Positions 4,992-27,719 are shown, counted from the stretch's first letter. The stretch: 64,000 bases of DNA from an uncultured Pseudomonadales bacterium (GCA_964620965.1 CAZUHV010000002.1:117452-181451), one strand, 5' to 3'. Notes: generated from the letters alone by a model not told the origin. A program made the numbers and translations.

Positions 4992-5177
4992 TACAGATTA
5001 ATTATCTCATACTCGTTTTCACCAGTAAACAATTTACGAAACTGTTCAAGTTTAGCTAACAATGGTTCAAACTGTTGAGCCTTAGGGTCACATTTTCACC
5101 TTTTTGCTCATTGATTTTCTTTTCATTTTCTATGTATTATTATCTTAGTCGACAATTAGTATTGTTCGGCTCGTTAT

Positions 5178-8279: not shown

Positions 8280-8844
8280 AGTTATTTTAATCTGTACAAC
8301 TGTATTTTTTGTTATACTTTTTAGTATATACCTGTGGGGAAATACACCAAATTCCGGTGAAATCATTAGCACAGCTCAAACCACACAATTAAATGAAGAT
8401 CTAGAAATTAAAACTAATACAGAAGAAAAAAATTCTTGTTTTTCATTTTTTCATGATCAAAACATTACTCAAATCAAAACAGAAGAATTCGATACAACTT
8501 GTATCATTCGAGCAAAAGTCGAAAAACCAATTGGACAACTGAGCATTTCTGTTGTTCAAAATACAGAAAATAAAAACTTTGACTTAGCAGAACAAACCGG
8601 AGTAACCTTACGAAAAAGTTTGCCCGATATCTACACACAAGAAATAAATATCCAAAACAAGCCAAAATTTTTTGAAAACGATAGCAATTTCAACTCAATT
8701 ATTTTTACTAATAAAACAGAAATTACAGGATTTTTTACTCAATCGAACAAACTCCTTACCGTTTCTATCCACGATGTTGCTACAATAAATGAAGAAGTTA
8801 TTTCTATCTTTGAAGAAACTCTTGATGGAGTAACAATTTATTAA
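8266..8844 (+). CDS. hypothetical signal-anchored protein
   Basis: A 192-aa ORF with an N-terminal hydrophobic segment ILICTTVFFVILFSIYLW. It overlaps the upstream gene by 14 nt, which suggests an operon. Confidence 0.5.
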   Translation: MKLNKVILICTTVFFVILFSIYLWGNTPNSGEIISTAQTTQLNEDLEIKTNTEEKNSCFSFFHDQNITQIKTEEFDTTCIIRAKVEKPIGQLSISVVQNTENKNFDLAEQTGVTLRKSLPDIYTQEINIQNKPKFFENDSNFNSIIFTNKTEITGFFTQSNKLLTVSIHDVATINEEVISIFEETLDGVTIY

Positions 8845-8863
8845 GTACCACTAAACAAAAGTA

Positions 8864-9907
8864 ATGAAGCCAAAACTGCTGTTTTTATTATTATTCTTTG
8901 TAATACCAGCTAGTACAAATTATAAACTAGACGCACATGGTATTGGATCGGGTGGGGGAATCACAAATTCATCATCTTATTCATTACTAGGAACAACCGG
9001 AGAACAATCTAGTAAAACAGAGGGATCTTCATACTCTGTTTGGTCTGGGATTCAATTTGCCGAAATGGCAAATACTCCACCTGCACCAACATTTGTTAAT
9101 GAAGATTCATACTATAATAAGCTAAGAATTACACTTGATACTGGAAATAATCCAACAGATACCCTCTACGCAATAGCAATTTCTACAGACAGTTTTACCA
9201 CAACAGAATATGTACAGTCGGACAACACTGTTGGCTCCACACTTGGAAGTGAAGATTGGCAAACATATGCAGATTGGGGAGGAAGTAGTGGTGAATTCGT
9301 TGTAGGGCTTGATGCTGATACAACCTACCAAGTAAAAGTAAAAGCAATTCAAGGAGATTACACAGAAAGCCCATATGGACCAAGTGCTTCTGCAGCAACT
9401 TCCGCTTTAACACTTTCTTTTGATATTGATGTCAGTTCAATTGATGAGGAAACAGCCTCACCTTATGAAGTTTCTTTAGGTTCACTCAATCCCGACACTG
9501 TTATCACGGCAACAGATAAAATATGGCTCGATCTTTCAACAAATGCAAATAATGGAGCAGTCATTTATGTGGCTGGCAGTACCGGAGGTTTATACAGCAA
9601 CTCTACAGCACACACTATCTCTGGTGTCAGTGCAGATTTAACTGGAGTATCAGAAGGATTCGGCTTAAAATCTGCAAGTGTTGCTGAAAGCAGCGGAGGT
9701 CCCTTAACTGCTGTTTCTCCATATAATGGTAGTAGTGATACTGTTGGTACTATAGCAACAACACTTGCATCTTTGTATAATACCTCTACTGCACCAATTA
9801 GTGCTGCAAGAGGGTCAATAGATATCAAAGCAAAGGCACAGTCACTCACACCTTCTGCAACAGACTATGCTGAGACTTTGACGTTCATTGCCGCAGCTAA
9901 TTTTTAA
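8864..9907 (+). CDS. secreted Ser/Thr/Gly-rich cell-surface protein, paralogue B
   Basis: Signal peptide MKPKLLFLLLFFVIPAS. The C-terminal region EGFGLKSA...YNGSSDT...ATDYAETLTFIAAANF aligns with the C-terminus of 5178..6218. Confidence 0.7.
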   Translation: MKPKLLFLLLFFVIPASTNYKLDAHGIGSGGGITNSSSYSLLGTTGEQSSKTEGSSYSVWSGIQFAEMANTPPAPTFVNEDSYYNKLRITLDTGNNPTDTLYAIAISTDSFTTTEYVQSDNTVGSTLGSEDWQTYADWGGSSGEFVVGLDADTTYQVKVKAIQGDYTESPYGPSASAATSALTLSFDIDVSSIDEETASPYEVSLGSLNPDTVITATDKIWLDLSTNANNGAVIYVAGSTGGLYSNSTAHTISGVSADLTGVSEGFGLKSASVAESSGGPLTAVSPYNGSSDTVGTIATTLASLYNTSTAPISAARGSIDIKAKAQSLTPSATDYAETLTFIAAANF

Positions 9908-9982
9908 TCAAAAAATTCCACCGTTTCGGACTTTGTTCTACTAGTTAATAGCGTAGAGAAATTGCTATATTGACAAGGTAAT

Positions 9983-11833
9983 ATGTTTAATAAAAACCAC
10001 TGGTTAGCTGGTCTTGTTTTTGGTAGTGTACTCATGCTCTTTTCAGTGGTATTTTTTAATCCAATTTTTGCTGCAACAGGAATTAATGAAAACATACATT
10101 TTCAAGGCAAAGTAGTAAATACAGACGGCACAAATGTAGCAAATGGAGACTACGATTTTGTCTTCAAACTCTATACTGTAGATTCTGCGGGAACTGCCAT
10201 TTGGACAGAAAATAGAACTTCTGCAAACCAAGTCACAGTCACCGATGGGGTCTTTAGCGTAGACTTGGGATCTGTGACTGCACTACCTGGTTCCGTTGAT
10301 TTTAATACCGATAATATTTACTTGGGTGTTGAATTTAACGGGGATGGAGAGATGAGTCCAAGAATCCAATTTACTGCTGTTCCATATGCTCATAATGCCG
10401 CAAAAGTTGGGGGACTTACTGTTACAGATACAACAAGCACTCTTACAATTCCAAGTGGTATAACTGTTGCTTTTTCTGGCTCAAATGATACAACTTTTAC
10501 AACATCAGGATCTACTAACGTAACACTCCCAACAACCGGTACACTTGCAACTCTTGCAGGGAGTGAAACTTTGACAAACAAAATTATTGGAAACACAGGT
10601 CTTACTTTTTCTGGAGCAACTACAGACATTACAACAGGAACCAACGAACACCTTTCAATTATGCCAAATGGAACTGGAAATGTTGGTATTGGAACTACCA
10701 ATCCATCAGAAAAACTGTATGTTTACAACTCTGTTAATAATCAAACTGGTTTTGTAGTTAGCAATGATAACTCCGGCAGTGCAGCTCAAGCCTTCTTTGC
10801 TATTGGTAGCAATCCTACAGCGAATCCATGGAATGGAGTATTTTTTCAGCACTATGGAGCAAACTTTACACCAAATGGCTTAAGAATGCCTAGTTCAACA
10901 ACAATAATTGGTGGTGGAAGCAATGGCTTAAGTATTGGAACAGATAATAGTTCTTCACTAAACTTTTTTACTAGTGGTGTTGCAAGTGGGGCAGATATGA
11001 CGTTAAATAGTAGCGGAAACTTAGGTATTGGAACAACAAACCCTACAGAACTACTACACGTTAATGGAAATATTAGAGCTAATGGATCAGTGGCTGGAGT
11101 AACAACTCTAGCAAGCTCTGGAGACTGGACTTGGACTGCGACAACACCAAACATTACAATTAACTCTGCTGAAGTTTTTACTATCACTGATGGCACTGAT
11201 ACTTTTACAGTTAATACCTCCGGCTCATTATTCTCATTCTTAGACGGATCTTCAAATGGGTTTACATTTGACGCTGATACAGGCCCTCTATTCGCTGGTA
11301 CAGCAAGACCTGCAAGAAAAGAAAAACTCGTACCAGAATATCCAGGTGCAGTACTTACCGGAGACGGAAGTAATAATACTGGAACTATGACTTCAGACTT
11401 CTGTGAACAAGGTGCACATGCCGATATCCCTGATATAAACACCACAACTTGTAATACGTCTGGAGATATCCACAACTACTACAGCTGGACTACCAATCAA
11501 GGATCTGCTCAAGATTATGACATTTGGGTGCGCTGGAGAATTCCAGATAACTTCGCCGTATGGGATTCAAACCCAATCCAAGTATATGCAAAACGTACAG
11601 ATACAACTAATAATGCAGTTACTGCGTTCGTATACGACACGGCTGGTGCCTTAAACAATGCCGGAGGCACCCAAATCGCTGGAACAACTTGGACGCAAAC
11701 AGCTATCTCTCTTTCTGGAGGCACTTGGACTGCTGGCTCTTATGTAACTATCAGAATAACCGTAGCCGCTGATACTGGAGGGGATAGTGTGCAAGTTGGA
11801 GAAATAAACCTTAACTACCTTACGAATAATTAG
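9983..11833 (+). CDS. secreted fibre-like surface protein with repeated GN[VL]GIGTTNP motifs
   Basis: Signal peptide ...PIFA|ATG. The repeats GNVGIGTTNPSEKLYV and GNLGIGTTNPTELLHVNGNI are of the type seen in tail-fibre-like proteins. The sequence is Thr/Ser/Gly-rich and 616 aa long. Confidence 0.7.
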   Translation: MFNKNHWLAGLVFGSVLMLFSVVFFNPIFAATGINENIHFQGKVVNTDGTNVANGDYDFVFKLYTVDSAGTAIWTENRTSANQVTVTDGVFSVDLGSVTALPGSVDFNTDNIYLGVEFNGDGEMSPRIQFTAVPYAHNAAKVGGLTVTDTTSTLTIPSGITVAFSGSNDTTFTTSGSTNVTLPTTGTLATLAGSETLTNKIIGNTGLTFSGATTDITTGTNEHLSIMPNGTGNVGIGTTNPSEKLYVYNSVNNQTGFVVSNDNSGSAAQAFFAIGSNPTANPWNGVFFQHYGANFTPNGLRMPSSTTIIGGGSNGLSIGTDNSSSLNFFTSGVASGADMTLNSSGNLGIGTTNPTELLHVNGNIRANGSVAGVTTLASSGDWTWTATTPNITINSAEVFTITDGTDTFTVNTSGSLFSFLDGSSNGFTFDADTGPLFAGTARPARKEKLVPEYPGAVLTGDGSNNTGTMTSDFCEQGAHADIPDINTTTCNTSGDIHNYYSWTTNQGSAQDYDIWVRWRIPDNFAVWDSNPIQVYAKRTDTTNNAVTAFVYDTAGALNNAGGTQIAGTTWTQTAISLSGGTWTAGSYVTIRITVAADTGGDSVQVGEINLNYLTNN

Positions 11834-11835
11834 AT

Positions 11836-14800
11836 ATGCATATGCTCTTCCAACAACTCGCAAAAATTAAACTTAAGAAAAAAATACTTGTTAAGTCAAC
11901 AAGATTTGTTTTAGCACTCTGGTTTATTATTTCTAACTTTTTGTTTGGCTTTCCAATTGACTACATTTTAAAAACACCAGTTGTGATTCAACAAGCGAAA
12001 GCAAATTCAAACACCTATGACTTTACTGACTGTGGCAGCACCTGTGATACTGACACCGGGTGGTGGGCATCTGACGATGATGTCGATCAGTTTCCGTTTG
12101 GTGGAGTTACAGCAAATCGAAACACACATGCAGAAGCAGACGATACAAACTATTCTAATATGGCAAACTCAGATGATACTTATGCAGTAGCAACTAATCC
12201 AAGCACTGGAGATGAAGTATTCAGCTGGTTTGAAATGACCATTACTGAAACGCCAAGCACTATTAAACAACTTGACTTTACTTTTGAAGGGTATCCTAAC
12301 ACTACTGCCTCACCATTTCAAATTTATGTCAAAACCGCCGCTGGTGCCTATGAATCTGATGCTTCATGGACTGCGCTTTCTGGACCAACAACAATTGCAG
12401 CTGGTACTGACACAACGATAACTCGTACACTCAAAGATAATATTACTGATTACATCGATGGAAATGGCAAAATAGTTTGGGGTGTCTACCAATCTGTATC
12501 AGCGCTTACCGTTAATATCGACTACGCAAAAATTGACGTTACATACCATCCAGTTGATTTAGAAGGATACAGATGGAGAAATGATGACGGCAACGAAACT
12601 GGCGCTACTTGGCTGGCAGATCAAGACAGCAATATTACTCAGCCAACAGCAACCAATACTAGACTGCGCACACTCATTAACTCAACGGGTACCGCTGATC
12701 CAGATACAAGCCAATATAAACTTGAATATAAACGTTCTACTGACAGTACTTATGTCCCAGTCGAGGTCACAACTCCCACAGATGTCACACCGACAATAGA
12801 ATCATGGTCTTCTGGTGCTTCAACTACAACTAATGCGTCTACTCATGCCATCACAATGCCTTCTGGAATTACTGCTGGTGATTTGCTTATCATAGTTTTT
12901 TCAACAGATGGTGTCGCAGATATTACCATCACAGCTGGTGATTGGATTGAACTAAGTCAAGCTCAAGGAAGTGGCGTTTCTAGTGGTATTTTTTATAAAT
13001 TTGCAACGGGCTCTGACACTGCAACGGTTGCAACTGGTTCAGAACAGACTTCCCATATTGTCTATAGAATTAGTGGTGCTAGTATGCCATATATTGCCCA
13101 AACAACTGGAAATAGTACTAACTCAGATCCACCAAATTTAGATACTGGCACTTCTCGAAACTATTTGTGGCTTGCTACTGCAACACATGATTCTACTGTT
13201 GTTGCATCAGCTGCGCCAACAAACTACTCAAATCTACATACCCAAGCTGCTGCAGGAACTGGTGGAGCATCTACGAGTACTGCAGAACGAGCTGCAACTG
13301 CCTCAAGCGAAAACCCAGGTACTTTTACTAGCAATACAGAGCAATGGGTTTCTTTTACAATTGCAATTCCTTCTTCAAGTATGGGAATACATTGTGCAAC
13401 CGCTCCAACAACCCAAGGTACAACAAGTGTTGTTATAAACTATCCAACGGATATAGCTGTCGGTGATCTCATGGTTCTGGGCATTGCAAATAAACATACT
13501 CCAAATGGTCCAACAACTCCCACTGGCTGGACTGCTGCCTCAAACTACCAAGCCTCAGGGAGTGGAGGTATTGATGGTCTAGACAGTGGAAGTGTGTACT
13601 CGTCAGTTTATTACAGAATTGTTGATGGTACAGAAAAAGGTACTTTTACTGTGAGTGTTCCCTCTGGAAATGCATCTATTGGCAGAATTTTGACGTATCG
13701 AAAGGAAGTCGGCAAAGAATGGGATGTTGCCATGTCAAATGGATCAGACAATACTCCAGATACCTCTTGGTCAATCACTGCTGGTTCTGACCCTGGAATA
13801 ACTGCTGGAGACATGGTCTTAGCGGTCAGTGCAATGAATACTGATCCCTATGGATATAACACACAAACCTTAGCAGCAACTGGCGTAACTTTTGACAGTG
13901 CAGAAAAAGAAGTCGGTGAGACAAATAGTACTGCTGGTAATGACCTTGAAATTGTTTTTTCAAACCATTTTGCGATTTCTGGCACCAGTAGTGCTGCTCC
14001 AACATACACTATGACAGCTAGTGGTTCTACTGCCAGTGGTCCTGCTGGAGCAACTGTTTTTGTGAGAATCCGCCAAAGAACTGCTCCAATCACTTTGTCT
14101 GCAAGTACTCATATTACTGCAAGTGGTGATAATACTACTGCTTTATTAACTCCTCCAGCAGGAAAAACTACTGGTGACTTTCTTACTGGTCGTATGCAAG
14201 ATGATGAAAATCCCGCAGATACTATTAACCTCTCTTCTAGCCAATACACAGAACTAGAATGGAATATTATTGCAACAAGTACGGCTGTGAATGATGAAAT
14301 TTACCAATTTAGAGTAACTGTAGGAGGTGTGCCAATTACTACTTACTCTGTAACACCACAGTGGACAATCGGTACTGCTGGAACGGCAGACCTTAATCAA
14401 ATTCATTACCGCTGGAGAAATGATGATGGCACAGAAGGATCATCTGGCTGGTACGATTCAAACTGGGTGTATAGAAAAAAGCTCACAATTGATAATACAG
14501 ATGTGGCAGGTAGTTCTAACCTCACCAACTTTCCTGTCTTGATTAACTATACACACGCTGATTTAAAAGATACAACCAACTCTGGTCACGTAGCACAATC
14601 AGATGCTGGTGATATTCTGTTTACTAACTCTGCGGGTACTAAACTTGACCATGAAATTACCAAATATGTGCCATCAACAGGTCAAGTAATTGCTTGGGTA
14701 GAAGTTGATGTTTTAGACTATGACGATGACACAGAAATTTATATGTACTATGGTTACGGTGCGGCTAGTGACCAATGGAATATAAGCGGAACTTGGAGCA

Positions 14801-16584
14801 ATGGCTATGTTATGGTGCAACATTTTAACGAAACTTCAGGAACTCACTTTGACTCTACTTCCAATAATAATGATTCAACCTCTGTGACTGTCACAACACA
14901 AGGTACTGCCACAGCCCAAATTGATGGAGCTGATGATTTTAATGGTTCTAATAACTATGTTGCCGTTGGTGATTCCAATTCACTAGATGTTACAAATTTT
15001 ACTATTTCTGGATGGTTTTCTATTGATACATTTCCTGGAACAGATCAATACAATAATATTCTTGATAAACAAGCCTATTTCCTTGAAGTAACAGATAACG
15101 ACGAATTTGACTGTGGAGTATACGATGGAAGTTTTTCTGAACATAACTCTGGTACCGCAAATCTCTCAACCGGAACTTACTACTATCTTGCCTGTGCATA
15201 TGATGATACGGGGGATACTGTTAGATTATATAAAAATAGTACTGAAGTATTAAATGAAGCTGCAACCAAAACACCAGCAACAAATAATATCGATATTGGT
15301 ATATACGCTCTTAGCGGAAATTTAGGCCAACAGCTCGACGGTCAAGCTGATGAGCTGGTTCTATCTAATGTCGCCCGTTCTGCGGATTGGCTCAACACCG
15401 AATACAACAACCAAAGTAATCCTGGAGTTGGAGGCTTTCTCACCAGTATAGGCACTGAAGAAACCGAAGGAACGGGCGCAACCTGGTTAGCGAATGAAGA
15501 CACGGCAGTTACAGATATTGCTAAAGAAACAAACGTAAGAATAAGATTTATGGTTTCTAATGAAGGTGGTGCTACATCAGATGCTACAGCATACCAATTA
15601 GAAGTTGCAGAAACTGGTACTTGTAGTGGTGGAACATATGCTGCTGTCCCAACTGACACGAGTGGAGACTGGCAAGTTTCGGCCTCAGCACATTTTACAG
15701 ACGGAGATCCCACAACAAATATTGCAAGTGGTCTAGCAGATGAAAACACAACTTTTGTTGCTGGACAAATTAAAGACACTGGCAACACTACAGGAAATAT
15801 CACATTAGCAGATACAGAATTTACAGAAATAGAGTTTTCCATTCAAGCTACAACCAATGCTACTGACGGTGGCTCGTACTGCTTTAGATTAAATGGTGCA
15901 GATACGTTCACTGAATACGCACAAGCCACACTCGAGGGAGGGGCAAGCCCCGTTTTTTCACTGAGTGCCTATCGATTTTATGATCAAACAGCTTCAGAAA
16001 ATGTCACAAACCCTTGGGGAAATCCTACTATTGCTGAAAATACACTACTTGCTCTTCTGCCAGCAACTAACACTCCTCCAGGAAATAGAGAAGATATAAG
16101 ACTAAGAGTTGGCATATCAGTTAGTACTGGGGCACTCTCCGCAACGAGTCAACAATTTAAATTACAATACAAGTCAGGCACTGATGCAAACTGTACTACA
16201 GGGTCATGGACTGACGTTGGAACGTCTATTAGTAGTGAAACATGGAGATACTCTACAACAGGTATCACTGACGGTACAACGCTGACAGCTCTTAAATTAT
16301 CTGGAAGTGATGTATTAGGCGTGTATGTAAAATCAAATCCAAGCGCAACAAACCCAAATGCTGTAGCTGTTGGAGAAACAGTTGAATATGATTTCAACTT
16401 TAAAGGCTTTAGTGCTGCATCAGCAACCACATATAGCTTTAGAGTTGTCGAAAGTGATGGAACTCCTTTAACAACATACACCTACTGTCCGACTCTTACA
16501 ACAAAAGCCGCTACAGAACAAGAATTACGGCACGGAAACGTGTTTTCTAATGAGACAGAACAAGGATTTACCCGTGCAAATTAG
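11836..16584 (+). CDS. giant (1582 aa) surface protein with Ig-like repeats and DUF2341 and LamG/concanavalin-like modules
   Basis: N-terminal TM FVLALWFIISNFLFGF. Repeated domain-start motifs appear: EGYRWRNDDGNETGATW, IHYRWRNDDGTEGSSGW and GTGATWLANEDTAV. A DUF2341-like segment reads WVYRKKLTIDNTDVAGSSNLTNFPVLINY...GDILFTNSAGTKLDHEI...IYMYYGYG. A LamG-like segment follows: FNGSNNYVAVGDSNSLD...FTISGWFSID...YYLACAYDDTGDTVRLYKNS. Confidence 0.8.
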   Translation: MHMLFQQLAKIKLKKKILVKSTRFVLALWFIISNFLFGFPIDYILKTPVVIQQAKANSNTYDFTDCGSTCDTDTGWWASDDDVDQFPFGGVTANRNTHAEADDTNYSNMANSDDTYAVATNPSTGDEVFSWFEMTITETPSTIKQLDFTFEGYPNTTASPFQIYVKTAAGAYESDASWTALSGPTTIAAGTDTTITRTLKDNITDYIDGNGKIVWGVYQSVSALTVNIDYAKIDVTYHPVDLEGYRWRNDDGNETGATWLADQDSNITQPTATNTRLRTLINSTGTADPDTSQYKLEYKRSTDSTYVPVEVTTPTDVTPTIESWSSGASTTTNASTHAITMPSGITAGDLLIIVFSTDGVADITITAGDWIELSQAQGSGVSSGIFYKFATGSDTATVATGSEQTSHIVYRISGASMPYIAQTTGNSTNSDPPNLDTGTSRNYLWLATATHDSTVVASAAPTNYSNLHTQAAAGTGGASTSTAERAATASSENPGTFTSNTEQWVSFTIAIPSSSMGIHCATAPTTQGTTSVVINYPTDIAVGDLMVLGIANKHTPNGPTTPTGWTAASNYQASGSGGIDGLDSGSVYSSVYYRIVDGTEKGTFTVSVPSGNASIGRILTYRKEVGKEWDVAMSNGSDNTPDTSWSITAGSDPGITAGDMVLAVSAMNTDPYGYNTQTLAATGVTFDSAEKEVGETNSTAGNDLEIVFSNHFAISGTSSAAPTYTMTASGSTASGPAGATVFVRIRQRTAPITLSASTHITASGDNTTALLTPPAGKTTGDFLTGRMQDDENPADTINLSSSQYTELEWNIIATSTAVNDEIYQFRVTVGGVPITTYSVTPQWTIGTAGTADLNQIHYRWRNDDGTEGSSGWYDSNWVYRKKLTIDNTDVAGSSNLTNFPVLINYTHADLKDTTNSGHVAQSDAGDILFTNSAGTKLDHEITKYVPSTGQVIAWVEVDVLDYDDDTEIYMYYGYGAASDQWNISGTWSNGYVMVQHFNETSGTHFDSTSNNNDSTSVTVTTQGTATAQIDGADDFNGSNNYVAVGDSNSLDVTNFTISGWFSIDTFPGTDQYNNILDKQAYFLEVTDNDEFDCGVYDGSFSEHNSGTANLSTGTYYYLACAYDDTGDTVRLYKNSTEVLNEAATKTPATNNIDIGIYALSGNLGQQLDGQADELVLSNVARSADWLNTEYNNQSNPGVGGFLTSIGTEETEGTGATWLANEDTAVTDIAKETNVRIRFMVSNEGGATSDATAYQLEVAETGTCSGGTYAAVPTDTSGDWQVSASAHFTDGDPTTNIASGLADENTTFVAGQIKDTGNTTGNITLADTEFTEIEFSIQATTNATDGGSYCFRLNGADTFTEYAQATLEGGASPVFSLSAYRFYDQTASENVTNPWGNPTIAENTLLALLPATNTPPGNREDIRLRVGISVSTGALSATSQQFKLQYKSGTDANCTTGSWTDVGTSISSETWRYSTTGITDGTTLTALKLSGSDVLGVYVKSNPSATNPNAVAVGETVEYDFNFKGFSAASATTYSFRVVESDGTPLTTYTYCPTLTTKAATEQELRHGNVFSNETEQGFTRAN

Positions 16585-17191
16585 AATAATTACTTTTGCA
16601 ATATTTTTTCTTTTTTTAGTGTTTATAACATACAACTTGTTTTTTGTTCCAGATGATCATTCAAAATCAGAAGGGTCAACTCTCGCTCTTTCAAGTGATG
16701 GTTCAAAAACAGATATATTTATTCAAGATAGTGAGACTCTCATACCTATCTCTACAGCAAGTGCAAATCATAATGAAGCATTCTCCAGAGGAGACTTTAT
16801 AGTCTGGATAGAAGAATCTCAATATAAAAGTGAAAAAGTTGTCGTTCGGTATCATGTTCCTACACAAACTACTATCTACATAACTTCACTTGGAAGTTCA
16901 CAGAAACCTAAAGTTAGTACAGAAGGTTATGTTGTATGGCAAGAATGGATAGATGAAACCTGGCAGATTTTTTACTTTGATGGTTTGACCAGCAAACAAA
17001 TAACTCACAGTAGTTCGAGCTCTCTTAATCCAGATATTTCTGGAAATACAGTTGTGTATGCTAGAAAAAATGAATCTAACACATGGGAAACTATTGAATT
17101 TTCCCTTAAAAATAACACTGAAAAAGTGGTTAAATCTGGAATTGAAGCTAAAAATCCCTATTTTTATGGCACAAAATTATTTTTTCGCTGA
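16550..17191 (+). CDS. hypothetical signal-anchored protein (beta-propeller-like fragments)
   Basis: A 213-aa ORF with N-terminal TM IITFAIFFLFLVFITYNLFF. It overlaps the end of the giant gene by 35 nt and ends with TGA. Confidence 0.5.
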   Translation: MRQNKDLPVQIRIITFAIFFLFLVFITYNLFFVPDDHSKSEGSTLALSSDGSKTDIFIQDSETLIPISTASANHNEAFSRGDFIVWIEESQYKSEKVVVRYHVPTQTTIYITSLGSSQKPKVSTEGYVVWQEWIDETWQIFYFDGLTSKQITHSSSSSLNPDISGNTVVYARKNESNTWETIEFSLKNNTEKVVKSGIEAKNPYFYGTKLFFR

Positions 17192-19897
17192 AAAATGAAT
17201 TTCATGTAAATATACACTGATTTCGGTATTTAGATAAAGTAAAAAATTTCCCAAAGAAAGCACTAAAAATGGAATTGCATAGTGTTTTTCATATACAAAA
17301 ACAAATAGTATTGCAGTTACTAATGACAAAAGTAAATTAATTTCCAATGCGCTGTCTAAAAAGTGCTTTAACAAAGATATTACTAACGAAAAATAGGATT
17401 TCTGAGCACTCTCTTTTTCAAGTTTTAATAGAGTACTTTCTTCAACTTCTGGCTTAAGATCAATCGACTGTGGAGCATAACCAGGAGCTACAACAGAAGC
17501 TGTAAGTGCTTCATCTAAGCTTTTTGGTACAAAAACCAATCCGTTTCTATGAACCTGTATCAGACTCTTTATCTGACCAGCAGAATCTTGAACTGTCACA
17601 ACTGCATTTCTCACCAACCGCTCAGTCTGAGTATCAACAAGCTTAATTTTATAATACTGACTTCCACCAACAACTAAGGTCTTCTTTTTACTAAAAATAA
17701 ATCTATGGTGGTGCAAAACAGAATGCAGTAATGTTCTTACCGAAAAATGAGATCGGGTTAAAAATCCAAACAAAGTAAGCGGGGTAGTAATACATAAAGT
17801 TAGCAGTGTAATCAATGTCAGCGTTGCATGAGACTCAGATTCCTTTTTCAAAAAGGTAACAAATAACTCAGTCTTTATTTTTGCTGTTTCAACATGATAT
17901 TCCACAGTTTTAAAGTATGGAAAGTATTCTTTTTCTAAATACAGTTGTGGGTAAAAAGTTGCGTTTGTAGTGTCAAATTCTAGAGATTGAGGGACATACC
18001 CAGTACTTTCAACCTCAATAAAATACTTGCCTTTAGGAAAAATAATGTCAATGCTACCTGCTGAGTTTGTAACATATTTTTCAAAAAAATCATATAATTT
18101 TGTAGTCTCATTATATTTTTTTATGTTCACTTTAGCTCGTTCAATCGGAAGTTTTGAGGCAGAATCATATACAGAAAAAGGTTGTACTACTAACAACTTT
18201 CCTAGACTAATATTTTTTTTGCTTCCAGCAAATGATTCTAAAGTTAGATACACCTGATATTTTCCAGGAATGTGTGGAATGGTCAAAGACCCAGACCAAA
18301 TCCCGTTTTGGATTTGGCTTATCTGAGATCCATACTGTGATTCTCCAAGTACTAAGCCTAAATCAATATCTGTTATTGTTTGTAGATATAAAGTTACCGA
18401 CTTTGTATCAAAACCTTCTAACAGTGGCAAAATAACTTCAAGCTCACTTCCTGCAGGAATGAGTAAATATTCCGGATCACCTAAGGAAGGAGAAAAAATA
18501 GGTTTTCCTTTCGAACTAACTGTAAAAGAAGTAAGTGTTACTGGATATGAGTCACTTGCTGTTAAAAATGCTAGTCGTTCAGAGCTACTTTGAACTCCAT
18601 TTTGAATTGAACTCAATAAGACATGGTATTCTTTATCTGGAAACAAATTATCTAAAACCAAGCTGTGGACCTTCTGTATTTGTAGTGACTCAAACACCTC
18701 TAACTTGGTCCCATCAACTGAGTAAACCGTCGCAGTTAGAGTACCAGGAGTATTCAAAATAACCTGCAACTCAGCAGATGTGCTCTCTACCGCAACTATT
18801 TTGTATGATACATACCCCGAAGATGCAGTTGTAGTAACTGCTGTTTGGCTTGTTGTACTTGCAGCCGGCGAAGAAGTTGGGGTAGGTGTACTCCCAGTAT
18901 TTGAAGTCGAAGATCCAGAAGAGCTTGAAACATACTTATAACTCACTTCACTTGTACTGTCTGTTGTGGTAACTGGATTTGTAATACGACTATTCACTTG
19001 AGCTGTTACTTCAGAGGACCCTGTATATTGAGCTGTAGTTTTTAGTATAAATGAGACTGTTTGGTTTTGAGTATTACCAGGAATTGCTGAAATCGTCCAA
19101 GTAATTGTTCTGTTGGTTAAGTTGATAACCGGCTCTGTATTATTATAAGCATCAGTGGCACTCCCAGCTACGTACTCAAAAAGGTCTACTGATGGAGAAC
19201 CAGCTCCAAAAATCGTCCCTTGTTCCCATTCTGCGACAATCGTTAGAGGTGTTGAAAAATCGTACTCAGTTCCATAAGTGATCACATACTCAATCTGCGT
19301 ATTCTGAGGAATTTGAGTTACTGAATCCTGCGTACTAATAACTGCAGAAAAATCAGAAATAGGAGGCAAAACTTGACCTGTAACAACTATTTGATCGTTT
19401 GAAACTACTGGAACAACTATGTCGACTAGATCAACTTGAGAACCACCTTGCCTTGTTTCTAACTGCCAAATATATTCACTAGAACTTCCTTGAGTACTTG
19501 GGTTGTTAGTTATTCCTCCAGTGATATAAAAACCATACGTTATTCCAACAGATAGATCCCCACTTGGAAACACTACTGTCTGCCCAGATTTTTGAACTGC
19601 TGTTCCAATACCTGGCCATGCAGTAATACCACTTGGTAGACCTGAAGTTGAAACTGTATATGAGCTCGCTACACTTGATATTGTCCATAAATTTGAAATC
19701 GTAACAGCTACTTGATCTTCAGTAACTCCTACACTTGAAACTGTTGCTGTAATCAAAACTGGAAGAGGAACACTTGAAACCTTATTTCTCTCTGGTCGAA
19801 CTGTTGCATTAGAAAAATCTGCCAAAACAGACTGGGGAATAAACAAAAAAAAGACCAACAAAAAGAAAGCTGTGACTCGACAGATAAGTTGTTTCAT
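17177..19897 (-). CDS. large (906 aa) secreted/anchored surface protein with carboxypeptidase-regulatory-like (Cna-B-like) domains and C-terminal TM helices
   Basis: Signal peptide MKQLICRVTAFFLLVFFLFIPQSVLA, long Ser/Thr-rich tracts, and a KYFIEVESTGYVPQ-type beta-sandwich. C-terminal hydrophobic segments flank a His-rich loop (LHSVLHHHRF). It is convergent with the plus-strand cluster. Confidence 0.75.
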   Translation of the reverse strand: MKQLICRVTAFFLLVFFLFIPQSVLADFSNATVRPERNKVSSVPLPVLITATVSSVGVTEDQVAVTISNLWTISSVASSYTVSTSGLPSGITAWPGIGTAVQKSGQTVVFPSGDLSVGITYGFYITGGITNNPSTQGSSSEYIWQLETRQGGSQVDLVDIVVPVVSNDQIVVTGQVLPPISDFSAVISTQDSVTQIPQNTQIEYVITYGTEYDFSTPLTIVAEWEQGTIFGAGSPSVDLFEYVAGSATDAYNNTEPVINLTNRTITWTISAIPGNTQNQTVSFILKTTAQYTGSSEVTAQVNSRITNPVTTTDSTSEVSYKYVSSSSGSSTSNTGSTPTPTSSPAASTTSQTAVTTTASSGYVSYKIVAVESTSAELQVILNTPGTLTATVYSVDGTKLEVFESLQIQKVHSLVLDNLFPDKEYHVLLSSIQNGVQSSSERLAFLTASDSYPVTLTSFTVSSKGKPIFSPSLGDPEYLLIPAGSELEVILPLLEGFDTKSVTLYLQTITDIDLGLVLGESQYGSQISQIQNGIWSGSLTIPHIPGKYQVYLTLESFAGSKKNISLGKLLVVQPFSVYDSASKLPIERAKVNIKKYNETTKLYDFFEKYVTNSAGSIDIIFPKGKYFIEVESTGYVPQSLEFDTTNATFYPQLYLEKEYFPYFKTVEYHVETAKIKTELFVTFLKKESESHATLTLITLLTLCITTPLTLFGFLTRSHFSVRTLLHSVLHHHRFIFSKKKTLVVGGSQYYKIKLVDTQTERLVRNAVVTVQDSAGQIKSLIQVHRNGLVFVPKSLDEALTASVVAPGYAPQSIDLKPEVEESTLLKLEKESAQKSYFSLVISLLKHFLDSALEINLLLSLVTAILFVFVYEKHYAIPFLVLSLGNFLLYLNTEISVYLHEIHFSAKK

Positions 19898-21403: not shown

Positions 21404-21967
21404 ATGAAAACACATAATCCAGAAGTAGAGATCAACCTAGAAAATTTCGAAGAACAATACAGAACTATTACTGCAAGGATTCGACCGTTACTAACCGTTA
21501 GAAATCCACAAAATCTCATAAATGGCATTACTCCTCAGGAACTTGGTCAGTTACACAATATTGCACAATTTGATGCAAAAACTCAGGACTTATTCAATCA
21601 GTTAGTTTCTGGAAAAATAACTAATGAATGGAAAGCGTTTGCTATTTTTACTCGTTTTAAAGATATAAGTCTTAAAAGCTTTCAACAAATGACAGAATCC
21701 CAAAAAATGAAACTTGCCCTAGAAGCTTTAGCTCTAGCTACTGCTGCTAAATATTACCTTGCAAGGTTATATCTTTCAGACAAGAAAAAATACTTTATTA
21801 TGGTTGAATATATGGGTGATATTGTTCCTTCATATTGGACGGAACTTGGTGATGCAGGGGCAAGCTCTCTCCATACCTGCCTCACTACTCCCGCTCAAAG
21901 CAGAACTTCCAAAGATGAATGGATTGTCTCAGCTTTATCTGGAAATAACGTGCGACTGCATATTTAG
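21404..21967 (+). CDS. hypothetical protein
   Basis: A 187-aa ORF. A TGaTACAAT extended -10-like element at 21389-21397 lies 6 nt before the ATG. No motif was recognised. Confidence 0.5.
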   Translation: MKTHNPEVEINLENFEEQYRTITARIRPLLTVRNPQNLINGITPQELGQLHNIAQFDAKTQDLFNQLVSGKITNEWKAFAIFTRFKDISLKSFQQMTESQKMKLALEALALATAAKYYLARLYLSDKKKYFIMVEYMGDIVPSYWTELGDAGASSLHTCLTTPAQSRTSKDEWIVSALSGNNVRLHI

Positions 21968-23187
21968 GCTAGCTGCTTGTTATTTTTATAAGATTCGGCA
22001 ATTTTGGTATACAACTGAATAATCTCATCCTTTGTTGGATTTGAAGAACAACTTTTAAGTATTCTTCTTGCTAATGGACCTTTTTCTAAAATGGTTTGCA
22101 AAATCTGAGCAAACTCTGAATGTTGCAACCGTAACTGTTTCATAAAAGGGGAGAGTATTATTTGTAATAATTCTTGAGCTCTAACTGGTTGTGTAATACC
22201 AAACTGTTCTAAATACTTTTCATTTGAAATAATCGCAAGTTCACCATCTTTAATAGTAGCAGTAAGTATTTCATACAATTCATCTGTAGGAACAGTTTTT
22301 TGTGCTTCAAATGACATCCATCTTTCCAAAACTAACTCATTTAAAATAAATACTACTGCTGATGAAACCGCGATATCTACATCAGGAGATTCCTGTGCAT
22401 CGATAAGTCTAATCTCTAGTGTATTTCTATCAAATCTTGCTATACAACCTCTAGAATTGAGCTGCTCTGTTTGTAAAATTTTCTCTTTGTCATAAGGAGC
22501 TATATCTGTATACATGCCTTTTAGCATTGCTTGATAAGAAGCAAAATCATAGATTTGTTCAGGAATAATTTTTCCTGTTATAGAAGCAACCTTTTTTTGA
22601 TTTGTTCTATACACTTCTAAACGACTATCTATAAAACCTGTATTTTTTCCTTCCAAAAAAGGAGATGATGCAGCCAACGCAGGAATAAGTGGCAAAACTA
22701 ACCTAATTCCAGCTAATAATCTTGCGAATTCTGCTTCAGTGTTAAAAGGAATGTTTATGTGTACACTTTGCAAGTTTGCAAAACCATGAGTATAACAGTT
22801 AAAAACAGTATGGTATGCAAGATAGTGCTCATGGTATTTTCCTGGCCAAAGTTGGGTTTGTGTTTTTGGATCCATAAATGGATGAGCTCCTGTTGGCAAT
22901 AGCAAGGCTGAAAATCTATCAGCAATTACATTACATTTTTGCATTGCAGTATGAAACTGATCTGCCATTTCTTTTGAAAGCACGCCTGGTTTTGATACCT
23001 TGAATTCAATTACATGATTGACCAATTCATTGGACCAAGTTATTGGTCCATCTACAAACTCAACGCTTGGCTCACCATTTATAGCTTCAAGAATTTTGTC
23101 TGCAACAGAACTTATCTCAAAAGAGTTTTTTGAAACAACTGCTGTTTCTATTTCAATACCAAGTGGAGTTTCGAGCAAATTTTTCAT
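21964..23187 (-). CDS. carboxylate-amine ligase of the glutamate-cysteine ligase family 2 (GCS2/YbdK-like)
   Basis: LQSVHINIPFNTEAEFARLLAGIRLVLPLIPALAASSPF and NLQSVH...P are characteristic of GCS2. Length is 407 aa. Confidence 0.7.
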   Translation of the reverse strand: MKNLLETPLGIEIETAVVSKNSFEISSVADKILEAINGEPSVEFVDGPITWSNELVNHVIEFKVSKPGVLSKEMADQFHTAMQKCNVIADRFSALLLPTGAHPFMDPKTQTQLWPGKYHEHYLAYHTVFNCYTHGFANLQSVHINIPFNTEAEFARLLAGIRLVLPLIPALAASSPFLEGKNTGFIDSRLEVYRTNQKKVASITGKIIPEQIYDFASYQAMLKGMYTDIAPYDKEKILQTEQLNSRGCIARFDRNTLEIRLIDAQESPDVDIAVSSAVVFILNELVLERWMSFEAQKTVPTDELYEILTATIKDGELAIISNEKYLEQFGITQPVRAQELLQIILSPFMKQLRLQHSEFAQILQTILEKGPLARRILKSCSSNPTKDEIIQLYTKIAESYKNNKQLA

Positions 23188-23217
23188 AATTCGAGCCTAA
23201 ATTACCCATAAAAAAAT

Positions 23218-24693
23218 TTAAATAATAACACTCTTAATTTGAGTTATTTTATTATATCGTTGTACAAAACTTTCCAAAACAGTTGTATATAGCTCATCTT
23301 TTAAAACCCTATCTTCGGAATTAGAATCTAGATTTGGATTGTCGTTTATTTCGATTACATATACCATGTCATCAACAACTTTTAGATCAACTCCGTACAG
23401 CCCATCTCCAATAAATTTTGTAGCTTTTAATGCCGTTTCAACAACTTTTTTTGGAACCATATATATCGGAAGAGTTTCATACTTTCCCCAATTATTATCT
23501 TCATTTGTCCAGTCGTAAATTTGCCAATGGTCTTTAGCCATATAGTATTTACATGCAAATAATGGCTTACCATCTAAAACTCCAATGCGCCAATCATACT
23601 CTGTTGGCATAAACTTCTGTGCAATCACAACATCTGAATCTTTCAATAATTCAGAAGCTTTAACTAAAAATTCTTCTTTTGAATTAGCCTTTGTGACTCC
23701 CATTGAAAAAGATCCATCGGGCTGTTTTAAAACACAAGGATACTGTATTTCTTGAGATACCTTTTTTAAGTTTTTCTTGTAAATAATATGAGTTTCTGGA
23801 GTTAAAATTTTTTCTTGAGTAAGTATTTCATTAAGATATACCTTATTTGTACACTTCAATATTGAGATTGGATCATCAATAACTACCATACCTTCTGTTT
23901 GTGCAAACCGGGCAAATTTGTAAGTATAGTGATTTACCGCAGTTGTTGCACGAATAAACAAAGCATCATAACTCGAAAGATCTTCATAATCATCTTTCGT
24001 AATAAGCTCTGCCCTAATATTCATCGTATCTGCAATTTTAATAAATTTATCCAAAGCTGCTTGGTCTGAAGGAGGCTCTTTTTCTTGAGGATCAACTAAA
24101 ATTGCAAGATCAATATATGGACGTACAATTTGTCTTTTTGAATGAGCTTTTTTAGAAAAATAGTCTTTTGCAAAATCAATTAAATATTCCATGTGAGACT
24201 CAGGAATTGAGCTAATACTAATCGGAGATAAATTTTGAATTTCCCAAACACCATCATGCTTCACAAAACTCGCTTTTAGTAGTGGAGCCTGAAATAAATC
24301 ATAGAGCTCTTTGCTGAGTTTGTCGTACTGTTTACTTATATTTCTGCTAAAGTAAATACTTAACTCAAACTTATTTGACTTAATATGCTTGAGCGACTGC
24401 TGAAACAAAAGTTCAAGTTCTTCCGATATAGATCTAATAATTGTTTGCGATTTAAAGTCCTGAATCGCAGAGACACTTGGAAACACTTTATGGCCTCTTG
24501 CGTCTGCAAGTAAGGATACGTAATATCCCCATGATTGGTATTTGTACGAAGAACACAAGTTATACACTGTAGCCTTTTGTTGCCCAGAATATTCAGAAGA
24601 AGTTAAGTAATCTCTAGAAGATACAATCTTAATTTTTTCTAAGGAAAGCGGAAATGTCTTTGGATTATCAACAACAATAATAGTTGTGTGCAT
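23218..24693 (-). CDS. RimK-type ATP-grasp amidoligase with an approximately 230-aa N-terminal domain of unknown function
   Basis: The C-terminal half (YPCVLKQPDGSFSMGVTKA...VVIAQKFMPTEYDWRIGVLDGKPLFACKYYMAKDHWQI...YVIEINDNP) fits the RimK/GshB ATP-grasp fold. It lies 30 nt upstream of the GCS2 gene on the same strand. Confidence 0.75.
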   Translation of the reverse strand: MHTTIIVVDNPKTFPLSLEKIKIVSSRDYLTSSEYSGQQKATVYNLCSSYKYQSWGYYVSLLADARGHKVFPSVSAIQDFKSQTIIRSISEELELLFQQSLKHIKSNKFELSIYFSRNISKQYDKLSKELYDLFQAPLLKASFVKHDGVWEIQNLSPISISSIPESHMEYLIDFAKDYFSKKAHSKRQIVRPYIDLAILVDPQEKEPPSDQAALDKFIKIADTMNIRAELITKDDYEDLSSYDALFIRATTAVNHYTYKFARFAQTEGMVVIDDPISILKCTNKVYLNEILTQEKILTPETHIIYKKNLKKVSQEIQYPCVLKQPDGSFSMGVTKANSKEEFLVKASELLKDSDVVIAQKFMPTEYDWRIGVLDGKPLFACKYYMAKDHWQIYDWTNEDNNWGKYETLPIYMVPKKVVETALKATKFIGDGLYGVDLKVVDDMVYVIEINDNPNLDSNSEDRVLKDELYTTVLESFVQRYNKITQIKSVII

Positions 24694-24770
24694 ACTTTTG
24701 TGATATTAGAAATAGATCATAACATAATTTAAACACAATACTATAGCTAAACTATGCTATCCTTAAAGTT

Positions 24771-25499
24771 GTGAAGAAAATCACTTTTTTTATTTTATCG
24801 GCGGTATTTTTTTTACTTGGTTTTGCTTCTGTTTTTCTTCCTAAAAAACAGTACTGTGCAAACTCAATTTCTTGTATTAAAAACCTTGAAACAGAAGTTG
24901 ATAATACTCAAACAGCAACTTTTTTGGGTCAAGAAATTTCCCCACCAAAAATATACCTCTCAAATGAAGATGCAATGATTCCAAACCAGGTACTTGGCGT
25001 TGAGTCACAAGCAGAACTTGAAACAAATGATATTAAAAAACATATTTATGTAGACCTTAAAAACCAAACACTCTATGCATATGAAGGCAACGAGCTTTAT
25101 TTTCAAACTTTAGTTTCTACGGGAAAGTGGGGAAGAACTCCAACTGGAACTTTCAAAATTTGGATAAAAATTCGTGCACAAAAAATGTCTGGAGGTAGTG
25201 GAAATGATTATTACTATCTACCAAATGTGCCATATATCATGTTCTTCTACAATTCTGAAGTCTCTAAAGATCGCGGATTTAGTCTGCATGGAACATACTG
25301 GCATAATAATTTTGGTCATGCTATGAGTCATGGATGTGTGAACTTAAGAACCATAGATGCAAAAGTTCTCTATGACTGGACAACACCCGCTACTACTGCA
25401 ACAACGACTCGTGCAACTTCAGAAAATCCTGGAACTGAAATTACAATTTGCGATGAATTAGAAATAATTCAAGGGGAAACACCAAAATGCCTAGAATAA
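24771..25499 (+). CDS. L,D-transpeptidase (YkuD family), membrane-anchored
   Basis: N-terminal TM ITFFILSAVFFLLGFASVFL. The catalytic motif HGT...SHGCVNL is present. Confidence 0.8.
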   Translation: MKKITFFILSAVFFLLGFASVFLPKKQYCANSISCIKNLETEVDNTQTATFLGQEISPPKIYLSNEDAMIPNQVLGVESQAELETNDIKKHIYVDLKNQTLYAYEGNELYFQTLVSTGKWGRTPTGTFKIWIKIRAQKMSGGSGNDYYYLPNVPYIMFFYNSEVSKDRGFSLHGTYWHNNFGHAMSHGCVNLRTIDAKVLYDWTTPATTATTTRATSENPGTEITICDELEIIQGETPKCLE

Positions 25500-26198: not shown

Positions 26199-27719
26199 CT
26201 AGTGTGTATTCTGTTGCCACGTTCCTTGTGGGGTATTTCTTCTAATTGGAGATGGATCTAAAGCCTGAAATTGTTCAATATCTTCAACACTTCTAAAAAC
26301 TAGCGATAAAATTATGTCTTCTGTTAGGTTATGTACATGAAATGGAACCGTTGGAACTCCGTATGGCAAATGATTTTTATACGCTTTTTTGATCTCGCCT
26401 TCAACAAATGATGGCATTTGAAATGGAAGCATTTTGTTATCTAAATATTTTGTTCGAGCTGAGGCCTCACCTCCATATGGTTTGAAATACTCACCGCCTT
26501 CATCAACGTAATACAACATCCCACCAGGAGACTCAACTGTGCCTCCAGCAACTGCGCGAGAAACTCCAATTCCAGAAGCTCCGAGCGCAAGAGTAGTTGC
26601 AATGTGATCACTCGCTCCACCTTCTACAATTACTGGTATCGAGATCTCACCACGAAGTTCCCAAAGCAAAATTGGCCAATCAATAACACTGCCACTTCTT
26701 ACCCCAGTTATGCACCTTCCACCGCCTCCAATACCAATGTATAGACCATCAGCACCAGCTTCTTCTATTTGTTTTGCTTGTAAAACATCTACTACCTGAC
26801 CAGCAAAAATTTCAACTTCTTGGCCAAACTCTTTCCTTAAAGCCTGGACTGTTCTAACTACAGACAAACCAGGTTCTGGTGAATACACTCTAAAAGTTCT
26901 AATACCAATTTTATATAAAGCTTTTCCTCGTATAATTGCTTTTGCTGGATCAGCATCAAGTACTCCCATAACATTGTGCTTCCAGTGATCAAGTAAAAAT
27001 TGTTTTTCATAATAACTACGACCAATCAACACTTCGCTTTCTTCTAATGCTGTAAAAACTTGCTTTGCTAAATCTACCTGACGAGAAATTTCATTAAATG
27101 GACCATTTCTTGGAACTCCAATAAGAGAAAGGCACTGTGCCATTGTTGAAATCGCATACACACTTCCCCAAGCATCGGGCATTGCAGAACCAACCAGTAT
27201 CGAGCGTGCATATTTTCCTAATTTAACAAAAGGACCATTATTTAGTCTAAACTTTCGAGACACTCTCTCACGCTGAGAACCTACAACTCTTATACCTAAA
27301 TCAGAAATAGAAAGTGCCAATTCTTCTGCAATTGTTTGTTCCATTACCTTGCTTTTAATTTTGGGAGGAGCAACAAATGGTTTCTTTTGAATTTTTTTTA
27401 AAGCTGAAATTCTTTCTGGATGATTAAAAATCTCGAGAAAATATTGACGAACTCTTAAAATCGTAATCATTTCTTTTACAGGGAGCATGCCACGCTGTTT
27501 ATATTCCAAGAAATCAAACGGGGTTTTCAGCAACCCTTGACTTGGGTATGCATTACTGTTTTCTTGACTTTCTGTATACCAATACTTCAGGTATTCTGTA
27601 AGATTTTTTTCAAAAGGTTCTAACTTTTCCAAAATAAATTTTTCCCAAAGTTTCGAATCTCGAAAAGAATTAAAAGGTAAATCTTTAATATTCATGCCAG
27701 AGTACATAGTAACAACCAA
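26199..27719 (-). CDS. IMP dehydrogenase/GMP reductase-family TIM-barrel protein with an approximately 170-aa N-terminal extension
   Basis: GSAMPDAWGSVYAISTMAQ (compare the IMPDH SAAMDTVTE motif), a Cys loop GIGGGGRCITGVRSG, and PVIVEGGASDHIATTLALGASG. Length is 506 aa. Confidence 0.6.
   Translation of the reverse strand: MVVTMYSGMNIKDLPFNSFRDSKLWEKFILEKLEPFEKNLTEYLKYWYTESQENSNAYPSQGLLKTPFDFLEYKQRGMLPVKEMITILRVRQYFLEIFNHPERISALKKIQKKPFVAPPKIKSKVMEQTIAEELALSISDLGIRVVGSQRERVSRKFRLNNGPFVKLGKYARSILVGSAMPDAWGSVYAISTMAQCLSLIGVPRNGPFNEISRQVDLAKQVFTALEESEVLIGRSYYEKQFLLDHWKHNVMGVLDADPAKAIIRGKALYKIGIRTFRVYSPEPGLSVVRTVQALRKEFGQEVEIFAGQVVDVLQAKQIEEAGADGLYIGIGGGGRCITGVRSGSVIDWPILLWELRGEISIPVIVEGGASDHIATTLALGASGIGVSRAVAGGTVESPGGMLYYVDEGGEYFKPYGGEASARTKYLDNKMLPFQMPSFVEGEIKKAYKNHLPYGVPTVPFHVHNLTEDIILSLVFRSVEDIEQFQALDPSPIRRNTPQGTWQQNTH

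Follow-up and report, generated by a model that had tools for sequence, protein, structure and literature searches.

A two-gene RLAN-ATP-grasp and GCS2 ligase locus in Patescibacteria-like chromosomal DNA, a probable reduced form of a widespread bacterial amidoligase operon

The window analysed here is the whole 64,000-nucleotide stretch CAZUHV010000002.1:117452-181451 of GCA_964620965.1, entered as DNA of an uncultured Pseudomonadales bacterium. Its minus strand carries two tandem genes, one for an ATP-grasp ligase with an N-terminal RLAN domain and one for a carboxylate-amine ligase of the GCS2 superfamily. The locus belongs to a known family that has been computationally described and is publicly annotated. 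The pair is very probably what is left in this lineage, after the loss of both hydrolase genes, of an amidoligase operon that is widespread among bacteria. The overall explanation favoured here joins this identity to a stepwise synthesis of peptides, and its probability is put at about 0.5. The mechanism itself, in which the two ligases act in sequence to build a small peptide, is proposed tentatively.

A scan of one genome per species gave 80 loci with an RLAN-ATP-grasp homologue, spanning Bacteroidota, Planctomycetota, Proteobacteria, Nitrospirota, Spirochaetota, Verrucomicrobiota, Fibrobacterota and others. In 64 of these loci the next gene downstream, on the same strand, is GCS2, mostly at a spacing of 30-96 nt, and two of the 80 end too early for GCS2 to be assessed. 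When metagenome contigs were scanned reciprocally, starting from GCS2, the RLAN-ATP-grasp gene was directly upstream in 66 of the 67 assessable loci. This is far beyond chance and the pair is a conserved functional unit, as had been proposed in the initial annotation of this DNA, which read the genes as a two-gene cassette that should recur in related genomes.

Neighbour clustering shows that the pair is usually embedded in a longer operon. A gene for a C39-like cysteine peptidase of ~235 aa is directly upstream in 66 of the 80 genome loci and 42 of 49 metagenome loci. A gene of the N-formylglutamate amidohydrolase (FGase) family, encoding ~240 aa, directly follows GCS2 in 44 of the 80 genome loci and 45 of 62 metagenome loci. 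The usual order is C39-like cysteine peptidase, RLAN-ATP-grasp, GCS2 and FGase-like amidohydrolase. This operon is common in Proteobacteria, for example in Legionella, Nitrosomonas, Thiobacillus and Azospirillum; in Legionella adelaidensis its products are annotated by PGAP as 'RimK family protein', 'glutamate-cysteine ligase family protein' and 'N-formylglutamate amidohydrolase'. The culturable organisms with these genes include Pontibacter ruber, Blastopirellula marina DSM 3645, Thiobacillus thioparus DSM 505 and Legionella adelaidensis. In the 64-kb window, tblastn found no match to the C39-like peptidase or the FGase at E<=1e-4. The genes that flank the pair in the window are a YkuD L,D-transpeptidase gene and an unrelated 187-aa open reading frame (ORF).

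The closest relatives of the ATP-grasp protein, 79% identical in locus L084 and 75% identical in locus L085, also belong to bare pairs, set in different flanks. A rough neighbour-joining tree, computed without support values, places the window in one clade with L084, L085, L086 and L087 inside the four-gene family. Loci L020, L081, L027 and L054, in which a GNAT acetyltransferase is the partner, form a separate clade. The simplest reading is that the window lineage lost both hydrolase genes. In L085 a Peptidase_C26/class-I GATase gene of the gamma-glutamyl-hydrolase type (5123-5881, minus strand) is divergent from and next to the RLAN-ATP-grasp gene; this is a single case, in which the C26 enzyme possibly stands in for the absent hydrolases.

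The host lineage can be judged from the other genes of the window, which include those for DnaE, CTP synthase, ATP synthase, LysRS, SerRS and SecA. The SecA shares 86% identity with a 'Patescibacteria group bacterium' protein and ~75% with proteins of Candidatus Woesebacteria. On this gene content and similarity the window is assigned to ordinary chromosomal DNA of a Woesebacteria-like member of the Patescibacteria. The ATP-grasps of the window and L084 share 79% identity and their GCS2 proteins 62%, while a SecA presumed to come from the L084 genome is ~70% identical to that of the window. By this comparison the ATP-grasp is under strong constraint and evolves more slowly than SecA.

The features of the locus are as follows.
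23218-24693, minus strand: gene for the 491-aa RLAN and RimK-type ATP-grasp ligase, the first of the pair (ORF, Pfam)
24181-24615, minus strand: RLAN domain, residues 27-171 of the ATP-grasp protein (Pfam PF14401)
23236-24114, minus strand: RimK/LysX-type ATP-grasp catalytic module, residues ~194-486 (profiles, motifs, predicted structure)
23188-23217, minus strand: intergenic spacer of 30 nt (sequence, terminator scan)
21964-23187, minus strand: gene for the 407-aa GCS2-superfamily carboxylate-amine ligase (ORF, Pfam)
24694-24770, no strand: divergent intergenic region of 77 nt between the ATP-grasp and YkuD genes (coordinates, sequence)
24771-25499, divergent to the ATP-grasp gene at a distance of 77 nt: YkuD L,D-transpeptidase gene (ORF, Pfam)

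Both reading frames, the minus strand, the 30-nt gap and the divergent L,D-transpeptidase gene are exactly as placed in the initial annotation, and its superfamily assignments also hold, with Pfam GCS2 downstream and, upstream, an ATP-grasp that has RimK and LysX as its best curated matches. A terminator scan found no terminator-like site or hairpin in the spacer, and an AGG is present ~8 nt 5' of the GCS2 ATG. The short gap, the AGG and the absence of a terminator-like site fit co-transcription, and the two genes are consistent with a single transcript. The 77-nt divergent region is presumed to hold the promoter of the pair; promoter-like matches found in it by a promoter scan are no commoner than in shuffled sequences. 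The ATP-grasp protein is identical in three independent metagenome assemblies, at least two of which also have the identical GCS2 in the same context, and a mis-called ORF or an assembly artefact is therefore unlikely. The 187-aa ORF (21404-21967, plus strand) converges on the GCS2 gene and overlaps its last 4 nt. This ORF has no Pfam, NCBIfam or PADLOC match and, outside the window, is conserved only in L001 and L002, two contigs of the same species.

Residues 27-171 of the ATP-grasp protein match Pfam RLAN (PF14401, 'RimK-like ATPgrasp N-terminal domain') at 160 bits against a cut-off of 25 (E=4.3e-47), over positions 2-147 of the 150 in the profile. The N-terminal part had been taken for a novel domain of ~230 aa with no recognisable motif, which this match to a curated family rules out. 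Residues ~194-280 are the ordinary pre-ATP-grasp part of a RimK-type module, as seen from the TIGR00768 match, which starts at residue 213, and from the secondary structure of the AlphaFold2 model. The supposed ~230 aa are thus the known RLAN domain lumped with part of the catalytic module. A census with the RLAN region gave representatives of 748 clusters (50% identity). Almost all are proteins of ~490 aa with an N-terminal RLAN, proteins of ~650 aa with the RLAN from ~residue 160, or gene fragments.

Invariant residues of the RLAN include Y29, N45, Y50, Y52, G56-L61, R66 and P72. No Lys or Asp/Glu-x-Asn motif for ATP and Mg is found among the conserved residues, and the domain is probably non-catalytic. 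An AlphaFold2 model of residues 1-200 has a predicted local distance difference test score (pLDDT) of 88 and a predicted TM score (pTM) of 0.81. The top Foldseek matches of the RLAN model in the PDB are ArgX, LysX, Asp1/PPIP5K kinases, synapsin, Ddl and RimK, and the ATP-grasp matches have E=3e-5 to 1e-3, a probability of ~1.0 and query-normalised TM scores of ~0.5 (top about 0.54). By eye, the order of secondary structure in the models also parallels parts of the catalytic module of the same protein. The predicted fold therefore resembles a degenerate ATP-grasp, and the RLAN may be a degenerate copy of one. A duplication detectable in the sequence itself was rejected: hhalign of the RLAN half against the catalytic half gives E=0.37 and an RLAN-only profile finds chance matches only among PDB sequences (E=0.2), so that the link is through Foldseek alone.

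More than 8000 close homologues match the ATP-grasp protein at 50-79% identity over 97-100% of its length. Typical examples have 52-57% identity over 97-100%, are named 'RimK family protein' by NCBI and come from Bacteroidota (Pontibacter, Rufibacter) and other phyla. Besides RLAN, the Pfam domains RimK, Dala_Dala_lig_C and ATP-grasp_3 are present, with PF08443 (RimK) scoring 34.7 bits against a cut-off of 21. On its domains, its motifs and its full-length collinearity, the protein belongs to the RLAN-containing RimK-like family (PF14401 with PF08443).

The best of the curated models are rimK_fam (TIGR00768, 7e-21, residues 213-457), LysX (3e-19), the glutathione-synthetase subfamily PRK12458 (1e-14) and MptN (8e-14), all ahead of Ddl (4e-11). 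All of these matches are far under their own cut-offs. TIGR00768 scores 74.7 bits against 143.4, the LysX equivalog model 69 against 276, the GshB models NF003573 and NF009110 27.7 against 272 and 54 against 408, and the Ddl model TIGR01205, ranked after RimK and LysX, 36.7 against 245.65. A profile built from 44 ATP-grasp sequences finds LysX (3vpd, 8e-11), RimK (2e-9 for 7qyr, to 7e-8) and Ddl (2e-7) in the PDB. The full-length AlphaFold2 model (pLDDT 87) has target-normalised TM scores (TMt) of 0.74-0.83 to ArgX/LysX, 0.74-0.78 to RimK and 0.64-0.78 to Ddl. Since Foldseek does not separate these clades, placement rests on the sequence profiles, which point to the RimK/LysX clade and not to Ddl or biotin carboxylase, as the initial annotation had expected. 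Residues K323, Q359, R369, D436, E448 and N450 are invariant in the 44 sequences and align to the VLK, QEY, R, D and E-x-N positions of LysX. This conservation of the ATP and Mg2+ motif residues suggests that the enzyme is probably active.

The 407-aa protein matches Pfam GCS2 (PF04107) at 98.6 bits against a cut-off of 21 (E=5.7e-28), over profile positions 1-277 of 291. The YbdK and GshA models score far lower than they require, with PRK13515 the best at 58.7 against 371, followed by TIGR02050 at 57.8 against 176.4 and gshA_cyano at 41.3 against 249. The single sequence matches plant GCL and YbdK only at ~1e-4, and no PDB chain is found at E<=1e-3 by the profile of the subfamily. The protein is a divergent GCS2 and belongs to a distinct subfamily, the genes of which occur practically without exception beside an RLAN-ATP-grasp gene. 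In an alignment of 32 orthologues 38 columns are invariant, many of them Glu, His or Arg; they include E12, E14, E54, H58, E61, H102, H134, R246, R251, E258 and R260. These columns fit a putatively active ligase.

Most of the loci without GCS2 fall into two groups, those with a GNAT partner and those with no ligase partner nearby. The GNAT is fused N-terminally to the RLAN-ATP-grasp in L020 and L081 and encoded just upstream in L027 and L054; its best named match is RimI, a protein acetyltransferase. In L027 (9943-11208) and L054 (4123-6273) the RLAN-ATP-grasp gene is followed by a gene of the Orn/DAP/Arg decarboxylase family instead of GCS2, to which L054 adds a gene of the dihydrodipicolinate synthase family and another with a CBS domain. 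These neighbours hint at a diamino-acid or polyamine-type substrate in this variant.

The RLAN-ATP-grasp homologue of P. aeruginosa stands alone, without GCS2, and adjoins an aminotransferase gene. It is found in L088 (NZ_CP133752.1), a record that also contains pagP and a cluster of genes for a glutamate/aspartate ABC transporter. L088 and L090 (NZ_AP026896.1, a 4.9-Mb Aeromonas caviae record) are listed as plasmids in PLSDB and both look chromosomal. Viral contigs from IMG/VR (L171-L176 and L178) carry genes for RimK-type ATP-grasps that lack RLAN, with matches at ~5001-5870 (in L178 at 9-512, the contig end). These are 37-46% identical to the catalytic module of the window protein and have sizes of, for example, 311 aa (L171) and 292 aa (L173). 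A GNAT-like match is present just upstream of the ATP-grasp in L173-L176, which in L173 is a separate 149-aa GNAT gene by Pfam. Near the ATP-grasp gene, L173 has a phage integrase gene and L171 one for an SU10-type portal. The viral contig L177 (5001-6161) has a 386-aa form with the first ~60 RLAN positions only, beside SNF2-helicase and DHH genes.

The mechanism favoured here is that the two ligases build a small peptide in consecutive steps. Both would be cytoplasmic ATP-dependent ligases that convert a carboxylate to an acyl-phosphate and, with an amine, to an amide. GCS2 would make the first amide, probably of the gamma-glutamyl type, N-capping an amino acid. The ATP-grasp would then add one or more amino acids, probably glutamate-like, to the free alpha-carboxylate. 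The RLAN may have no catalytic part in this and serve to dock the substrate or the partner, and the C39-like and FGase-like hydrolases, where present, would trim or recycle the product. A GNAT is another route to N-acylation of an amine, and its occurrence as the alternative partner fits this logic of capping the N-terminus and then extending. By analogy, glutamate would be the likeliest building block, because RimK, LysX, MptN, CofF, GshB and GshA add or act on glutamate, the FGase family likewise handles it, and the gene beside the pair in L085 is of the gamma-glutamyl-hydrolase type.

Earlier computational work, summarised in PMC4431377, holds that ATP-grasp and COOH-NH2 ligases encoded in one operon often catalyse peptide ligations one after the other. 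In the pathway of the osmolyte N-acetylglutaminylglutamine amide (NAGGN), Ngg N-acetylates one glutamine and couples it to another through a peptide bond (PMC8070244). The GNAT-RLAN-ATP-grasp variants share with Ngg/AsnO this logic of capping and then ligating, as a functional analogy only. A tblastn search of 72,556 plasmids found no S. meliloti match to the window protein (E<=1e-10) or to a GNAT-fused relative (E<=1e-3). The ngg gene, which we take to be on S. meliloti pSymB, was covered through this plasmid search, by which Ngg does not come out as a detectable member of the RLAN family.

Several observations weigh against the stepwise synthesis of a small peptide. No biochemical study of the RLAN-ATP-grasp/GCS2 family was found in literature searches, so that the substrates, the order of reactions and the product are here purely inferred. 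Both proteins are far under every curated equivalog cut-off (RimK, GshB, Ddl, YbdK, GshA), and no specificity can therefore be transferred to them. The ATP-grasp is unusually conserved, with ~55% identity across phyla, which could point to a conserved macromolecular substrate. Peptides or proteins are the usual targets of C39-type peptidases, and the best named match of the GNAT partner is an enzyme that acetylates proteins. The stand-alone ATP-grasp homologues of P. aeruginosa and of phage contigs mean that this enzyme is not strictly dependent on GCS2.

The main rival to peptide synthesis is protein tagging, which we regard as possible although on the whole unlikely. The RLAN-guided ATP-grasp would modify a specific protein by attaching amino acids, such as glutamates, at its C-terminus or on one of its side chains; GCS2 would add a different residue or prime the site, and the C39- and FGase-like enzymes would be erasers or proteases that expose the acceptor. 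RimK glutamylates ribosomal protein S6 and LysX/ArgX act on LysW, so that the nearest curated and structural relatives have protein C-termini as substrates. The window protein resembles RimK (which occurs with RimA and RimB) in its ATP-grasp clade and in its fold, and LysX/ArgX are its best structural matches and among its best matches in sequence. The canonical four-gene operon also resembles the RimK operon in having a ligase and a trimming peptidase: the Pseudomonas RimK operon joins the ligase with the trimming protease RimB, which parallels the peptidase genes seen here (PMC11957791). The RLAN, being highly conserved and aromatic-rich, could be a protein-recognition module, and tagging is also in keeping with the cross-phylum conservation of the ATP-grasp and with the RimI match of the GNAT partner. 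However, the operon has no conserved neighbour that could encode a substrate, and no conserved small ORF, although the substrate gene of RimK is not adjacent to it either, and there is no LysW-like small gene nearby and no lysine or arginine pathway gene in the RLAN operon. The window protein further differs from RimK in the additional RLAN, in its obligate GCS2 partner and in its TIGR00768 score, which is below the cut-off. It is established that characterised GCS2-family enzymes ligate free amino acids and that FGase-family enzymes hydrolyse small N-acyl amino acids, both of which argue against a protein as the acceptor.

The initial annotation had suggested a glutathione-like thiol, with GCS2 making gamma-Glu-Cys and the ATP-grasp adding a third residue in a host with a reduced genome. 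The shared superfamilies stand, in that the glutathione route (GshA or a GCS2-type GshA/EgtA/YbdK, then GshB) likewise combines an enzyme of the glutamate-cysteine-ligase superfamily with an ATP-grasp and has a plausible two-step acyl-phosphate logic of an isopeptide followed by an alpha-peptide. The weak NCBIfam matches do include glutamate-cysteine ligase models and the PRK12458 glutathione synthetase subfamily, and a two-enzyme pathway would be economical in a Patescibacteria genome. All GshA, YbdK and GshB models are nevertheless far below their equivalog thresholds, the GCS2 has no PDB relative at E<=1e-3, and the RLAN is foreign to that route. In addition, a GNAT can replace GCS2, the two hydrolases of the usual operon have no role in glutathione synthesis, and the gene order puts the ATP-grasp first. 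The operon is also common in Proteobacteria, where Legionella, Nitrosomonas, Thiobacillus and Azospirillum generally carry canonical glutathione genes. The thiol is therefore somewhat disfavoured and we consider it improbable. The second suggestion was a peptide related to the cell wall. In the form considered here, the two ligases would work with the adjoining L,D-transpeptidase to produce or alter a stem or bridge peptide of peptidoglycan, which is very improbable. The YkuD gene is indeed divergent and adjoining, genes for an SLT transglycosylase and a LytR_C protein are nearby in the window, and Foldseek finds Ddl-type ATP-grasps about as near as RimK. Yet no YkuD, SLT or LytR_C homologue is beside the pair in 87 other loci, including the relatives with 75-79% identity, RimK/LysX outscores Ddl in the sequence profiles (7e-21 against 4e-11 for the curated models and 8e-11 against 2e-7 in the PDB), and all Ddl models are far under cut-off. 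The YkuD adjacency is local to the species of the window and, with no conserved linkage to YkuD, SLT or LytR_C, the cell-wall idea is largely refuted. The unassigned flanking ORFs of 231 aa and 187 aa likewise have no homologue beside the pair in these 87 loci.

Other candidates were also rejected. An anti-phage defence system has no real match among the PADLOC models: the ATP-grasp gives a 32-residue fragment match to PDC-S43 (E=2e-4) and GCS2 gives none. A ribosomal precursor or carrier peptide encoded nearby was sought as a conserved small ORF near the operon and none was found, the recurrent small ORFs all being shadows in other frames or on the other strand of conserved genes. Klebsiella CfmP has a TupA-like ATP-grasp and is outside the RLAN-ATP-grasp family.

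The neighbourhood of the pair was also compared with that in L084, which shares malic-enzyme, GreA and IMPDH-like neighbours with the window in a shuffled order. The IMPDH-like protein (506 aa, 26199-27719, minus strand) has a partial match to the IMPDH/GMP-reductase barrel at residues ~286-425, far under all cut-offs, and an N-terminus of 285 aa with no family assignment. Its L084 counterpart (8787-10286) directly follows GCS2 on the same strand after a 67-nt gap and is 79% identical. This shared neighbour may reflect either lineage synteny or a functional link. Elsewhere in the window, a weak Rfam tRNA match (58330-58400, plus strand, 37 bits against a gathering threshold of 29) is present just after the LysRS-HD gene and was not called by ARAGORN. 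Three large genes have almost no family matches: 9983-11833 (plus strand, 616 aa), 11836-16584 (plus strand, 1582 aa) and 17177-19897 (minus strand, 906 aa). The 616-aa product has a sub-threshold match (37 bits against 60) to the N-terminal domain of the 'mosaic adhesive trimer' fibre proteins of Bdellovibrio, and the 906-aa product resembles a surface or membrane protein rich in Ser and Thr. Judged on these features, the three may serve at the cell surface or in attachment in an episymbiotic member of the candidate phyla radiation (CPR).

Neighbourhoods of RLAN/RimK-like ATP-grasp and COOH-NH2 (GCS2) ligase genes were reportedly catalogued computationally by Iyer et al. in 2009. The present locus resembles those in its architecture, in the GCS2 gene directly downstream and in full-length identities of 50-57% across phyla; it differs in that the window and its close relatives are without C39-like and FGase genes and in its Patescibacteria host. 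The literature search returned no mention of RLAN or PF14401, nor of the four-gene combination. What is new here is the hydrolase-less, two-ligase form in a reduced CPR genome.

The persistence of the ligases without their hydrolase partners marks the two ligases as the functional core of the operon. The family is large, multi-phylum and tightly organised. The locus is not itself exceptional, and its main value is that it offers a compact pair of genes to express heterologously in order to find the product. A more speculative and rather unlikely possibility is that the bare pair is a self-sufficient minimal pathway for a dedicated, non-ribosomal, glutamate-containing peptide (a thiol, osmolyte or signal) or for a new protein tag, in which the RLAN, as a degenerate ATP-grasp, is a pseudo-enzyme that docks GCS2 and channels its product to the second ligase. 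If true, this would provide the first chemistry for thousands of uncharacterised 'RimK family proteins'.

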